Shown here: piece after piece, positions 922-3,730 of the stretch
Layout: every line of letters starts with the position of its first letter
How positions within the stretch are numbered: the stretch's first letter is position 1
Translations under genes and position numbers: made by a program
The notes under the pieces: model-generated
What the model saw: the letters and a program-made list of their open reading frames with translations, nothing else
Told to the model about the DNA's origin: nothing
The model's database searches: none
Source: a virus
Lineage: Duplodnaviria; Heunggongvirae; Uroviricota; Caudoviricetes
IMG/VR virus record: IMGVR_UViG_2675903368_000002
DNA length: 18,934 nucleotides
Strand: one strand, 5' to 3'

Positions 922-1589
922 ATATCTACGAAAGAATTGATGGCAGCAAATACCGAAATATTTGGGTAGTTGGCGATCTGCACGGATGCTACACGAACCT
1001 GATGAACAAACTGGATACGATTGGATTCGACAACAAAAAAGACCTGCTTATCTCGGTGGGCGATTTGGTTGATCGTGGTGCAGAGAACGTTGAATGCCTG
1101 GAATTAATCACATTCCCCTGGTTCAGAGCTGTACGTGGAAACCATGAGCAAATGATGATTGATGGCTTATCAGAGCGTGGAAACGTTAATCACTGGCTGC
1201 TTAATGGCGGTGGCTGGTTCTTTAATCTCGATTACGACAAAGAAATTCTGGCTAAAGCTCTTGCCCATAAAGCAGAAGAACTTCCGTTAATCATCGAACT
1301 GGTGAGCAAAGGTAAAAAATATGTCATCTGCCACGCCGATTATCCTTGTGACGAATACGAATTTGGAAAGCCAGTTGATCATCAGCAGGTAATCTGGAAC
1401 CGCGAACGAATCAGCAACTCACAAGACGGGATCGTTAAAGAAATTAAAGGCGCGGACACGTTTATCTTTGGTCATACGCCAGCAGTGAAACCACTCAAAT
1501 TTGCCAACCAGATGTATATCGATACTGGGGCAGTGTTCTGCGGAAATCTCACATTGATTCAGGTACAGGGAGAAGGCGCGTGGGCATAA
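918..1589 (+). CDS. Ser/Thr protein phosphatase (lambda ORF221-type, calcineurin-like metallophosphoesterase)
   Basis: 223 aa with metallophosphatase motifs GDLHG, GDLVDRG and GNHE. Start ATG at 918 overlaps the ninG stop (ATGA), suggesting translational coupling. No ninH-like ORF lies between ninG and this gene. Confidence 0.9.
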
Positions 1590-2098
1590 GAGAACTAAAC
1601 CTCACCAAAGAACAGCATGAGTGGCTGAATGGCTGGCTTGAACTGTGGGGCGCATGGGTTTATTCAGGTCGTTTGGAAAAGCGCATGAGCAGCGTAATAG
1701 CGAAGTTCATGGAGAGCGTAGAGCCGGGAAGAATTATGACAAGGCCAATGTGCAATGATGATGATGGAATGTTGATTTCTCAGGTCGTCGATTCCGTCAT
1801 GTGCATTGACAAGAAAGCCTTTGGCATCCTCCTCAGCTACTACGCTCATGGTTCATCTAAGCGAGCAATTGCATCCTACTATCACGCGACTGCAAAGCCA
1901 CGCAAGATGTGTGGACGTGGTGGCGAGGGATGGAGAAAACCTTCACTGGCAACCTGTAGAAACGAAATTGACGACATCCTGAAAGCGTCATTATTTGTTT
2001 TGTACCAACCAATGCAAAATGCTTTCAAAATGCGTAAACGTGTTGAGAAAGTTAAGCATGTTGCTGTTAAAAACCTTGACATGCAATTAGCCATTTAG
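1580..2098 (+). CDS. Q: Late-gene antiterminator Q (non-lambda allele; phage 21/82-like Q family)
   Basis: 172 aa with an N-terminal WGAW motif and Cys-containing central region typical of the Q-antiterminator family; no resemblance to lambda Q. GTG start at 1580 is preceded by GGGAGAAGG and overlaps the phosphatase stop. Sits immediately upstream of the late promoter and lysis genes. Confidence 0.8.
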
Positions 2099-2106
2099 CC
2101 ATAATT
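2076..2106 (+). promoter_or_regulatory. Candidate late promoter (pR'-like) with expected Q-utilisation site
   Basis: TTGACA at 2076-2081 and CATAAT/ATAATT at 2100-2106 with an 18-19 bp spacer, overlapping the 3' end of Q. Position matches the lambdoid late promoter; the qut element itself is inferred, not identified. Confidence 0.5.
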
Positions 2107-2116
2107 AGAGGGTAAG

Positions 2117-2158
2117 CTGCCGTTAGTGACTCTTAAGTTGCAACGGTGGCTTTTTTTT
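2117..2158 (+). terminator. Intrinsic terminator just downstream of the late promoter (tR'/t82-like)
   Basis: GC-rich hairpin: GCUGCCGUU (2117-2125) pairs with AACGGUGGC (2142-2150), followed by a U8 run at 2151-2158. Lies ~45 nt from the predicted start, the arrangement expected for a terminator read through by Q-modified polymerase. Confidence 0.6.
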
Positions 2159-2163
2159 GTTTG

Positions 2164-2182
2164 CACAACAGGTAAGAGCATT
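2164..2182 (+). repeat. 19-bp direct repeat copy 1 (CACAACAGGTAAGAGCATT)
   Basis: Exact 19-mer immediately after the terminator T-run; an identical copy lies at 2415-2433. Confidence 0.9.
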
Positions 2183-2222
2183 CTCCCTTATGGGGCTTGG
2201 CTTAAATGCACCGAGTGCTCTT

Positions 2223-2246
2223 ATCGTTGTGGCAGCACAACGATAG
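2223..2246 (+). other. Perfect 10-bp inverted repeat (TATCGTTGTG-gcag-CACAACGATA): RNA hairpin or protein-binding palindrome
   Basis: Left arm 2223-2232, 4-nt spacer, right arm 2237-2246, followed by GUUUUCG. Located inside the segment bounded by the 19-bp repeats. Confidence 0.5.
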
Positions 2247-2414
2247 TTTTCGTCAGAGTTGGCGACTTTGCGGTTTTTTAGAAACTGACCACAAAGATAA
2301 ATGCAAACGATGATGTTGTTCTGATGGCGGCGTAATAGCCTGTAAGTCAGCAAGGTCTTCCGACTCCTTGTAAACAAATTCGGCGCACTGGCCCGGTGTG
2401 ATTAATAATGGGCA

Positions 2415-2433
2415 CACAACAGGTAAGAGCATT
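2415..2433 (+). repeat. 19-bp direct repeat copy 2 (CACAACAGGTAAGAGCATT)
   Basis: Exact copy of 2164-2182; directly abuts the hammerhead motif. Confidence 0.9.
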
Positions 2434-2484
2434 GCGCGCCTGACGAGTCCATGAGGGACGAAACGCATTAGCGTCGCGCGGAGT
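2432..2484 (+). ncRNA. Hammerhead self-cleaving ribozyme motif (stem I open, type I topology); predicted cleavage between C2475 and G2476
   Basis: Sequence 2434-2480 reads GCGCGC-CUGACGA-GUCC-AUGAG-GGAC-GAA-ACGC-AUUA-GCGU-C^GCGCG. All invariant core positions are present: C3 U4 G5 A6 N7 G8 A9 at 2440-2446, G12 A13 A14 at 2460-2462, A15.1 (2463) paired to U16.1 (2474), H17 = C2475. Stem II is 4 bp (2447-2450 with 2456-2459) with a 5-nt loop; stem III is 4 bp with an AUUA loop; stem I is 5 bp (2435-2439 with 2476-2480) and continues after a G-G mismatch. On the strand transcribed from the late promoter. Confidence 0.6.
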
Positions 2485-2924
2485 ATCCCCAGCCGGGGAA
2501 TAACTGGATACCAGGGGAGACAACCCTAAGCGCATTTACGAGTGTGTTTAGGGCGTGGGTCGGCAATGACTCCCTGTGCAGCCGACATCTGGCCCGGCAA
2601 CATACAGTGCTCTTTCCGTTGTGCTGAATTAAGCGAATACCGGAAGCAGAACAGGATCACCAAATGCGTACAGGCGTCATCGCCGCCCAGCAACAGCACA
2701 ACCCAAACTGAGCCGTAGCCACTGGCTATCCTGAACTCATCAGTGATAGTTACGCTGCGGCCTTCTATACATGACCTTCGTGAAAGCGGGTGGCAAGAGG
2801 CTGCGCTAACAACCTCCTGCCGTTTTGCCCGTGCATATCGGTCACGAACAAATCTGATTACTAAACACAGTAGCCTGGATTTGTTCTATCAGTAATCGAC
2901 CTTATTCCTAATTAAATAGAGCAA

Positions 2925-2949
2925 ATCCCCTTATTGGGGGTAAGACATG
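2925..2949 (+). promoter_or_regulatory. sdi-like stem-loop and Shine-Dalgarno region controlling the S dual start
   Basis: CCCC (2927-2930) and GGGG(G) (2936-2940) form a hairpin directly upstream of the Met1-Lys2-Met3 dual start of S, as in lambda. Confidence 0.6.
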
Positions 2950-3270
2950 AAGATGCCAGAAAAACATGACCTGTTAGCCGCCATTCTCGCGGCAAAGGAA
3001 CAAGGCATCGGGGCAATCCTTGCGTTTGCAATGGCGTACCTTCGCGGCAGATATAATGGCGGTGCGTTTACAAAAACAGTAATCGACGCAACGATGTGCG
3101 CCATTATCGCCTGGTTCATTCGTGACCTTCTCGACTTCGCCGGACTAAGTAGCAATCTCGCTTATATAACGAGCGTGTTCATCGGCTACATCGGTACTGA
3201 CTCGATTGGTTCGCTTATCAAACGCTTCGCTGCTAAAAAAGCCGGAGTAGAAGATGGTGGAAATCAATAA
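2947..3270 (+). CDS. S: Holin/antiholin S (class I holin, dual-start S107/S105)
   Basis: 107 aa, essentially identical to lambda S as recalled ([20 protein letters not shown]...); three hydrophobic transmembrane segments; MKM dual-start motif. Confidence 0.95.
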
Positions 3271-3730
3271 TCAACGTAAGGCGTTCCTTGATATGCTGGC
3301 GTGGTCAGAGGGAACTGATAACGGACGGCAGAAAACCAGAAATCATGGTTATGACGTCATTGTAGGCGGAGAGCTATTCACTGATTACTCCGATCACCCT
3401 CGCAAACTTGTCACGCTAAATCCGAAACTCAAATCAACAGCCGCCGGACGTTACCAGCTTCTTTCCCGTTGGTGGGATGCCTATCGTAAGCAGCTTGGCT
3501 TGAAAGATTTCTCTCCGAAAAGCCAGGACGCTGTGGCACTGCAGCAGATTAAAGAGCGTGGCGCTTTACCGATGATTGATCGCGGTGATATCCGTCAGGC
3601 TATCGACCGTTGCAGCAATATCTGGGCTTCATTGCCGGGCGCTGGTTATGGTCAGTTCGAGCATAAGGCTGACAGCCTGATTGCAAAATTCAAAGAAGCG
3701 GGTGGAACGGTCAGAGAGATTGAGGTATGA
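3254..3730 (+). CDS. R: Endolysin R (lytic transglycosylase, lambda R-type)
   Basis: 158 aa, near-identical to lambda R as recalled ([35 protein letters not shown]...). Start overlaps the end of S. Confidence 0.95.

Follow-up and report, generated by a model that had tools for sequence, protein, structure and literature searches.

What is a self-cleaving ribozyme doing in the late leader of a lambdoid phage? The question is raised by an 18,934-nt stretch of virus DNA (Caudoviricetes; IMG/VR record IMGVR_UViG_2675903368_000002), analyzed here at full length and referred to as the window, in which an earlier note had described a complete hammerhead ribozyme motif upstream of the holin gene. In this work, we compared the hammerhead (HH) and its surroundings with phage, prophage and metagenome sequences and found that it is joined at its cleavage site to a conserved RNA (X, window positions 2476-2601), the two recurring as one cassette (HH-X). 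The comparative data make it probable that the segment 2435-2480 is a functional type I hammerhead that serves as the processing module of this mobile phage RNA cassette.

Hammerhead motif in the window

The conserved core consists of CUGACGA (2440-2446) and GAA (2460-2462). Stem II is formed by GUCC (2447-2450) and GGAC (2456-2459), which give 4 bp closed by the loop AUGAG (2451-2455), and stem III, also of 4 bp, comprises the A2463-U2474 pair (A15.1-U16.1) followed by CGC/GCG (2464-2466 / 2471-2473) and the loop AUUA (2467-2470). The cleavage triplet GUC occupies 2473-2475, with C2475 as C17 (position H17, that is, not G). The flanks CGCGC (2435-2439) and GCGCG (2476-2480) pair over 5 bp as an open stem I, while loops close stems II and III, which is the type I topology. 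All the elements listed in the earlier note are therefore present in the sequence, with a stem I of 5 bp and G2434 outside the pairing; the short helices and the lack of an obvious contact between stem I and loop II, which it also mentioned, hold for the subtype to which the window belongs. Every testable hammerhead feature of sequence and structure was found, the one exception being the annotation cut-off of Rfam. Hammerhead chemistry, applied to this motif, predicts a 2',3'-cyclic phosphate on C2475 and a 5'-OH on G2476. The hammerhead is the minimum free energy (MFE) fold of the isolated segment 2425-2490, and it also forms when 231 nt of native context are folded (2405-2635; z = -3.0).

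Could such a motif be expected by chance? A descriptor that combined the core, stems of at least 4, 3 and 3 bp and an H17 other than G found one site in the window, compared with 0.0005 per dinucleotide-shuffled window (2000 shuffles, both strands), in line with the earlier opinion that a chance match was very unlikely. The Rfam hammerhead models, named in the earlier note as a check, gave a divided answer: at the gathering score, no hammerhead was reported in the window or in 14 homologous loci, while in E-value mode, Hammerhead_1 (RF00163) matched 2435-2481 with 24.7 bits (E = 0.0005-0.002, local searches). In the Rfam alignment, the core, stem II and stem III are perfect, and the score is lost at stem I, which is unlike the seed consensus. 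The gathering score is an annotation cut-off and no biochemical criterion.

The hammerhead and X recur as one unit

In a BLAST search with 2434-2606, the hammerhead came up together with its 3' sequence as a single unit. Of 5426 complete E. coli genomes, 15 carried HH-X. In the T7-like Enterobacter phage SDFMU_EhYP (EhYP), the cassette separates the capsid gene from the tail-tubular genes, and in the Pectobacterium phages Pappous and Taid and the Dickeya phage Setonix (80% identity), a tRNA-Met follows it directly. Further homologues were collected with patterns that specified the downstream X sequence alone and never the hammerhead. The X-pattern scans yielded 20 IMG/VR loci and 20 metagenome loci, and a pattern for the X 3' domain alone yielded 37 further viral loci (loci are designated below by L numbers). 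In a scan of genome contigs, the X 5'-domain pattern gave no match and the 3'-domain pattern gave 27, of which 18 had no 5' domain and were chance-like in GC-rich coding DNA. True matches of the 3'-domain pattern occurred in metagenome-assembled genomes or genomes labelled Rhizobium, Mycobacterium, Thermomicrobiales, Eubacteriales, Gammaproteobacteria and Patescibacteria, and the host associations of the phage and prophage DNA with X comprise Proteobacteria, Actinobacteria, Firmicutes, Chloroflexi and Patescibacteria.

In the first set gathered by these X-only searches, a hammerhead stands directly 5' of GCGCGGAG, the beginning of X, in all 37 distinct sequences. Since the same hammerhead, always fused to X, recurs in unrelated genomic contexts, these comparisons indicate that the unit under selection is the hammerhead plus X and that it was inserted into the window leader as a cassette.

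Conservation and covariation of the hammerhead

Is the hammerhead itself maintained, or is it a chance or decayed match that has no activity? In a MAFFT alignment (A4) of the 19 distinct hammerhead variants of the first set, 95% of the stem cells were paired, 6 of the 12 pairs showed compensatory change, and the covariation score was reached by 0 of 500 shuffles. A family-specific covariance model (R1), under which the window copy scores 72 bits, found 53 copies. In the resulting set (50-51 distinct rows), 94% of the stem cells were paired (100% in stem III), with 86 double-change cells across 7 of the 12 pairs and compensatory change in all three stems; again, none of 500 shuffles attained the covariation score, and slid partners paired in just 16-56% of cases. 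The R1-set alignment is fitted to the model and leans towards structure, and the MAFFT-based counts agree with it. The core positions C3, G5, A6, G8, A9, G12, A13, A14, A15.1 and U16.1 are identical in 50 of 50 sequences and U4 in 49 of 50, the free position N7 varies (U 28, C 15, A 7), and H17 is C in 26 sequences, A in 21, U in 3 and G in none. The window and phage EhYP differ at 9 of 195 nt; four of these differences lie within the hammerhead, all of them in N7 or loop II.

These patterns indicate that the hammerhead is under selection. An inactive chance or decayed match would be consistent with the score under the Rfam gathering cut-off and with the short helices, but not with an expectation of 0.0005 sites per window, an invariant core, 86 compensatory cells and 51 distinct homologues in phages of several bacterial phyla; we consider it extremely improbable, and the comparative data refute it in practice. 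Individual copies are probably weakened ribozymes, namely, those at L006 (~1199-1250, E. coli 2017.17.01CC, with an A.C mismatch in stem I) and L017 (59-110, with a C.A mismatch in stem II). A U4C core (CCGAUGA), which likely weakens the ribozyme, is found in three gut-virome contigs (L158, L167 and L171).

X is a conserved pseudoknotted RNA

Immediately 3' of the cleavage site lies X, a structured RNA that was overlooked in the earlier note. It is 126 nt long, extends from G2476 to C2601 and is more conserved than the ribozyme. In alignment A3, which holds 18 linear-type X sequences, 99.6% of the cells of 27 tested pairs were paired, and 12 of the 27 pairs showed compensatory change (helices are listed in Table 1). 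Helix P1x is invariant in A3 and covaries in the wider family, where GUAUCC/GGAUAC is replaced by GGAGCC/GGCUCC, GUGGCC/GGCCAC or UUAGCC/GGCUAU. Approximately 45 nucleotides are near-invariant, in the segments GCGCGGAG, GGGGAAUAACUG, GCGUGGG, UGCAG, AUCU.GCCC and CAAC.

The G-U pairs give X a strand-specific signal, which marks it as an RNA rather than a DNA site or a protein gene. The reading as a DNA-level element was rejected on the grounds of this strand-specific pairing. Two protein-coding readings, one for 2253-2535 (minus-strand open reading frames (ORFs) of 62-71 amino acids) and one for the 38-amino-acid coding sequence annotated over X in phage Pappous, were also rejected because the substitutions are compensatory, tolerate G-U and are not codon-like. 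No plausible Rfam match was obtained at E values up to 10 over 2476-2601 or over X in other members. The drum motif was considered as the identity of X and rejected: cmscan gave no match, and the source paper describes drum as terminator-linked and near particular protein genes, noting a possible relationship to DUF3800 genes. A literature search that included literal X sequence strings returned no description of X or of the HH-X cassette, which is weak evidence given its incomplete coverage (few subscription journals). X is apparently an undescribed, deeply conserved phage RNA.

Linear and circularly permuted architectures

Three architectures were observed. In the linear form, to which the window belongs, the order is hammerhead, X 5' domain, Pa, Pv and X 3' domain. 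In the circularly permuted form, the X 3' domain comes first and is followed by a short linker, the hammerhead and the X 5' domain, and the Pv helix is closed by the two ends of the transcript, as in L034, where UUGGCUGUAAGC at the 5' end pairs with GCUUUCAGCCAA at the 3' end. We tallied 72 distinct contexts. A canonical hammerhead is present in 34 of the 34 linear contexts, whereas the 38 permuted contexts comprise 28 with a canonical hammerhead, 3 with the U4C core and 7 with none or a degenerate one. Any hammerhead that is present sits directly 5' of GCGCGGAG. The third architecture, permuted and without a hammerhead, has a linker of 6-19 nt (L140, L148 and L154), an unrelated 41-nt insert (L139/L165) or a degenerate core (L144 and L195) instead. 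Because tRNA-bounded permuted copies can lack the hammerhead (L140, L148 and L154), X appears to work without it when its ends are defined otherwise.

The tRNA neighborhood is a frequent one. Phage contigs of 80-165 kb carry HH-X inside large tRNA arrays. The cassette is flanked by tRNA-Thr and tRNA-Gly in L014, and L029, L035 and L022 show the order tRNA-Thr (ending in ACCA), 13 nt, hammerhead, X, 3 nt, tRNA-Gly; further examples are L043, L037, L040 and L046. Permuted copies often begin just past the 3' end of the upstream tRNA (L153, L163 and L140). Other RNAs were seen next to X in such places. L140 carries a complete bacterial class A RNase P RNA (2968-3382, minus strand, 266 bits) in an array of ~28 tRNAs together with X, and in L148, a sub-threshold match to a Y-RNA-like sequence (YrlA; 1982-2122, plus strand, 45 bits against a cut-off of 69) lies directly upstream of a hammerhead-less X.

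Is it, then, the chemistry of the break that matters? X might act in a nicked or two-piece state (in the permuted and arms forms) or with its 5'-OH, and these 5'-OH and 2',3'-cyclic phosphate termini might engage or decoy tRNA-targeting defences or the enzymes with which host or phage repairs RNA and senses RNA damage (RtcB/RtcR, Pnkp/Rnl). Linear and permuted forms retain the hammerhead at the identical junction, X is found among tRNAs, phage RNase P RNA and Y-RNA-like sequence, and a parallel exists in permuted two-piece tmRNA genes, in which processing restores the native ends. However, no break is programmed in seven permuted contexts, which carry a short linker or an insert that is not a hammerhead, no repair or defence gene was consistently linked in the loci inspected, and the argument is purely inferential; we find this explanation quite unlikely.

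Hammerheads with the same stems II and III were detected in 98 phage contigs in an IMG/VR scan, and ~80 of these contigs had no X. Many of the X-less phage hammerheads are located 10-30 nt upstream of a ribosome-binding site (RBS), and several, in tRNA arrays, precede other conserved non-tRNA RNAs, which suggests a general hammerhead-plus-small-RNA arrangement in phage tRNA arrays. Array hammerheads ahead of other RNAs were noted at L059 (585-621), L077 (5357-5393), L104 (7457-7493) and L119 and in two further groups of loci (L094/L117/L055/L115 and L113/L128/L061); examples of the sequences 3' of them are AGACAGC..ACCUUGUGGUGUA..GCAA and GCUUAGGCC..GUGAGUGGACAAGGCC.

These X-less hammerheads bear on another possibility, namely, that X belongs to the ribozyme as an accessory domain, acting either as a tertiary stabilizer or as a ligand- or protein-sensing aptamer that would make the whole a natural allosteric hammerhead. 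The permuted X topologically extends stem I, the conservation of X resembles that of a riboswitch, and the loop II sequence (A/G)GU(A/C)ACGC, conserved in many permuted members, could pair with the invariant GCGU of X. Nevertheless, loop II is varied in the linear subtype, X occurs without a hammerhead (L140, L148 and L154) just as hammerheads with the same stems occur without X, and tRNA arrays are no regulatory context. Such a role for X is, in our judgment, very unlikely.

The late leader and its hairpin slot

The features of the window that surround the cassette are collected in Table 1.

Table 1 Features of the late leader and of the HH-X cassette in the window
Feature	Position	Strand	Basis
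Type I hammerhead ribozyme	2435-2480	+	Sequence, Rfam E-value match, folding, chance test, conservation and covariation
Predicted self-cleavage site	2475..2476	+	Hammerhead chemistry applied to the motif
X RNA, conserved, pseudoknotted	2476..2601	+	Alignment A3, pair counts, P1x covariation
X 5' end, GCGCGGAG	from 2476	+	Near-invariant
X helix P1x	2483-2488 / 2506-2511	+	Invariant in A3, covaries in wider family
Near-invariant X segment, GGGGAAUAACU	2495-2505	+	Alignment
X pseudoknot Pa	2514-2519 / 2570-2575	+	4/6 pairs with compensatory change
X variable hairpin Pv	2524-2533 / 2544-2553	+	Alignment A3
X hairpin Ph	2560-2564 / 2581-2585	+	Alignment A3
X tail, AUCUGGCCCGGCAAC	3' end of X	+	Alignment
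Q-family late antiterminator gene	1580..2098	+	Pfam Phage_antitermQ, E = 1.8e-25; arrangement as in RefSeq-annotated prophage of L003
Late promoter pR', TTGACA-18-CATAAT	2076..2105	+	Promoter scan 11/12; aligns with annotated pR' of Sf6 and HK75
tR' / qut-region terminator, phage 21-type leader	about 2115..2159	+	Alignment with annotated Sf6 and HK75 terminator
First arms hairpin copy, CACAACAGGUAAGAGCA ... UGCUCUUAUCGUUGUG, loop CUCCCUUAUGGGGCUUGGCUUAAAUGCACCGAG	2165..2232	+	Sequence; folds as hairpin
Module A, tmRNA-like coding RNA	2243..2414	+	Sub-threshold Rfam tmRNA matches, conserved tag frame
5' arm of second arms hairpin, around HH-X	2415..2431	+	Pairs with 2608-2623 in MFE fold
3' arm of HH-X-enclosing hairpin	2608..2623	+	Lambda-like sequence from here to S
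Holin S (lambda family), first late gene downstream	2947..3270	+	Pfam Phage_holin_3_1, E = 2.4e-30

The hammerhead is on the strand transcribed from pR' (2076-2105), downstream of tR' and ~364 nt past the transcription start, and the predicted cleavage site precedes the S start codon (2947) by 471 nt, matching the strand and the ~470 nt given in the earlier note. The 850-nt leader is a mosaic: the part from 2100 to about 2270 matches the leaders of phage 21, HK75 and Sf6 type, the part at 2605-2950 matches lambda 44844-45189, and two inserted modules lie in between. In lambda (J02459), a hairpin just after tR' has the arms CACAACAGGUAAGAGCA (44787-44803) and UGCUCUUUCCGUUGUG (44847-44862) and a loop of 43 nt; the corresponding arms of the window (2415-2431/2608-2623) hold the hammerhead plus 126 nt more. 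The arms covary in the distant homologues L046 and Citrobacter phage Mijalis, and the stem is therefore real.

This arms hairpin is likely an RNase III site and a recombination hotspot. Processing of lambda late RNA at RNase III sites has been reported (Daniels et al. 1988, Virology 167:568, as cited in PMC7547250, reference 49). The arms hairpin of lambda is a plausible site of this processing, its identity with the mapped sites being our inference. The hairpin recurs in many phages as a slot for varied loop inserts: 43 nt in lambda, 42 nt in phage C1, GGGGCUUGGCUUAAAUGCA in the first window copy and in Mijalis, and HH-X in the second window copy. The loop of the first window copy is also found after module A, the other inserted module, in Mijalis. 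The CGUGAAGAGUCGG in the hairpin loop of lambda (~44804-44846) and phage C1 (L002 1675-1716) resembles the hammerhead segment CUGANGAGUCC; it is not followed by GAAA or a stem III and could be a decayed remnant or a coincidence. In E. coli EC6622 (L051, NZ_CP096587 1447560-1447910), module A and HH-X form a 351-nt block that matches the window at 100% identity, in a prophage whose Q gene (lambda-type, 624 nt) and holin both differ from those of the window. Module A and HH-X have therefore moved between late leaders as a unit.

Does the hammerhead serve the late operon? In such a role, it would detach the terminator-bearing leader, and the 5'-OH with its structured cap would alter the stability or translation of the mRNA, much as in the synthetic insulator RiboJ (see below). 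The placement of the cassette between Q and the holin gene in ~14 E. coli prophages fits this idea, as does the finding that many of the other type I hammerheads of phages precede an RBS by 10-30 nt and several permuted HH-X copies precede ORFs by ~100 nt; mRNA processing has also been proposed for prophage hammerheads (Perreault et al. 2011, PMC3088659). However, no hammerhead was found at the homologous late-leader site of lambda, HK75, Sf6 and hundreds of other lambdoid phages, where only the flanks align; the S gene is separated from the cut by 471 nt that include the conserved X; no mRNA follows the cassette where it occurs in tRNA arrays; and ~45 invariant nucleotides with a pseudoknot exceed the needs of a stabilizing 5' hairpin. 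We therefore regard a late-operon function as rather unlikely. The search of other lambdoid prophages that the earlier note had called for did recover the motif at this position in the ~14 E. coli prophages, but it is not general there: the view of the hammerhead as a device of lambdoid late leaders finds no support, in view of its absence from most relatives and its presence in only 15 of the 5426 E. coli genomes. The consequence envisaged in the earlier note, namely, that cleavage would sever the leader and leave a 5'-OH at G2476, remains valid as a prediction; its effect on S and the structural mRNA is most likely incidental or secondary.

Module A, a tmRNA-like neighbor

The module directly upstream of the arms contains a tag frame (2303-2335) encoding ANDDVVLMAA and then a stop, after which two pseudoknot-like elements follow. 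Among its homologues, an invariant AUAAAU is followed by GCA AAC GA.., which opens a 10-codon frame ending in UAA, and the peptide is conserved in character and not in nucleotides: ANDDVVLMAA in the window and phage C1, ANDDLMMVAA in P1, ANDNTFLAVA in Kuttervirus SenASZ3, ANDNVFLAVA in Mijalis and ANEEMYLAVA in a Klebsiella phage. The SsrA tag of E. coli is ANDENYALAA. ARAGORN detected no tmRNA and no tRNA-like domain in module A, and its Rfam tmRNA scores (17-27 bits) are under the cut-offs. Matches are found in 758 phage records, including virulent sipho-, podo- and myophages and P1, and are unannotated there save for an occasional 'hypothetical protein'. In Mijalis, module A lies between tRNAs, and in P1, it lies in the ban leader beside an annotated 'dicF-like region'. 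This P1 locus (L135, NC_005856 68791-69501) combines the 'dicF-like region', a partial module A homologue, tRNA-Asn and tRNA-Thr, the same two tRNAs as in the late leaders of phage 21 and Sf6.

Phage leaders and tRNA arrays appear to exchange small-RNA cassettes. Module A is a separate cassette that neighbors the hammerhead unit and is no part of it, and it may be an undescribed class of phage RNA. The possibility that module A and HH-X form a two-piece tmRNA was rejected as unsupported: a T-arm, an acceptor stem and CCA features are all missing from X, module A occurs without X in ~750 phage records, and X occurs without module A.

Proposed maturation of X

How might the cassette work? At the late stage, Q-modified RNA polymerase would read from pR' through tR', and the hammerhead in the transcript would fold and cut itself between C2475 and G2476. 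The cut would free the exact 5'-OH end GCGCGGAGUAUCC... of the pseudoknotted X and in this way mature it. The 3' end of X would be set by the element that follows. In tRNA arrays, this would be the RNase P cut at the next tRNA; in the window, processing of the arms stem (2415-2431/2608-2623), likely by RNase III, would probably produce it and separate X from the remaining late mRNA. Because the cassette sits in the loop of a late-leader hairpin, the X of the window would be made only from Q-antiterminated late transcripts. The cut would also sever the ~364-nt leader, including module A, from the lysis and structural mRNA, as a by-product or a secondary use.

The 5' ends of tRNAs come from RNase P, of which X is not a substrate, and E. 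coli-type bacteria have, to our knowledge, no 5'-to-3' exonuclease; a ribozyme in cis would thus be a simple route to a defined 5' end. Maturation of the X 5' end would account for the absolute linkage in the linear form, for the loss of the hammerhead in some tRNA-bounded permuted copies and for the independence from neighboring genes.

Several points weigh against this interpretation. Cleavage is deduced from the sequence, and the benefit of maturing X is presumed. The RF00163 gathering score of 34 is reached neither by the window (24.7 bits) nor by phage EhYP (28.7 bits). Stem I has only 5 bp, no contact between stem I and loop II is evident in the E. coli subtype, and cleavage by so minimal a hammerhead could be slow at the Mg2+ levels of the cell. 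A few copies have stem mismatches (A.C in stem I of L006, C.A in stem II of L017). The homologues were gathered with exact-match patterns, which biases the sample to conserved members and fixes some columns (GCGUGGG was in the search pattern). Finally, 31 of the 38 permuted contexts retain a hammerhead that lies inside X and makes no transcript end, so end-trimming alone is not a full explanation; a free 5' end or a nick at the hammerhead/X junction may itself matter.

Comparison with known systems and significance

Intergenic hammerheads of phages and prophages, with proposed processing of transcripts into defined RNAs, are known (Perreault et al. 2011, PMC3088659). With these type I hammerheads (RF00163, clan CL00010), the window motif shares the core, the three-helix junction, the open stem I and the intergenic phage site; it differs in scoring under the Rfam gathering score, in its obligate coupling to X, which also exists in permuted form, and in its occurrence in genetically tractable E. 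coli lambdoid prophages. The window hammerhead was not found in the accessible part of the supplements of PMC3088659. Theta ribozymes, which are minimal ribozymes like that of hepatitis delta virus (HDV), adjoin phage tRNA genes and trim tRNA 3' trailers (Kienbeck et al. 2024, PMC10879173, in which hammerheads are not mentioned). Both are small self-cleaving ribozymes of phage tRNA arrays, and theta is thought to replace host nucleases in making ends. The HDV-like theta cuts at its own 5' end, whereas the hammerhead described here would cut at its own 3' side and make the 5' end of a non-tRNA RNA. Theta ribozymes are the closest functional parallel.

Circularly permuted, two-piece genes are also known for tmRNA (Rfam RF01849-RF01851 and RF04321). 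Both tmRNA and X have linear and permuted gene orders, and by analogy, processing of the joining segment may restore the linear ends of X. X, however, has no tRNA-like domain or tag frame and has an in-cis ribozyme instead of host nucleases, so the likeness is one of analogy only. RiboJ, a synthetic insulator made from the sTRSV ribozyme (satellite RNA of tobacco ringspot virus), consists of a hammerhead plus a hairpin and is placed in 5' untranslated regions. Like HH-X, it sheds a variable leader and leaves a 5'-OH and then a structured element; in HH-X, that element is the deeply conserved, pseudoknotted X, which is present also where no mRNA follows. In comparison with the lambda late leader, HH-X lies inside the same hairpin, whose 43-nt loop in lambda holds no complete hammerhead. 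Three features are new here: the hammerhead is coupled obligately to a single, deeply conserved RNA, this RNA occurs naturally in a form that is circularly permuted around the ribozyme, and E. coli lambdoid late leaders carry the cassette.

A more far-reaching proposal is that HH-X is a two-component RNA device and X a new, widespread class of structured phage RNA that targets the machinery of tRNA, translation or RNA repair and needs ribozyme-made termini, namely, a 5'-OH and, in the permuted or arms forms, a nick with 5'-OH and 2',3'-cyclic phosphate ends. We consider this unlikely. If it were true, the termini of X would engage or decoy repair and sensing of the RtcB/RtcR type or tRNA-directed defences, and the X of E. 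coli late leaders would be a late-expressed counter-defence or translation-reprogramming RNA.

Annotation at the Rfam threshold misses this whole group of hammerheads. The family also provides a natural experiment, with linear copies that always have the hammerhead, permuted copies that mostly have it and some tRNA-bounded copies that do not. The E. coli lambdoid copies are under the control of the best-understood late-gene switch, where point mutants, RNase III mutants and sequencing of 5'-OH RNA ends are routine. The purpose of bacterial and phage hammerheads has been in question since their discovery in 2010-2011, and the fixed partner X offers a concrete job for this one, which would be to make the 5' end of X.

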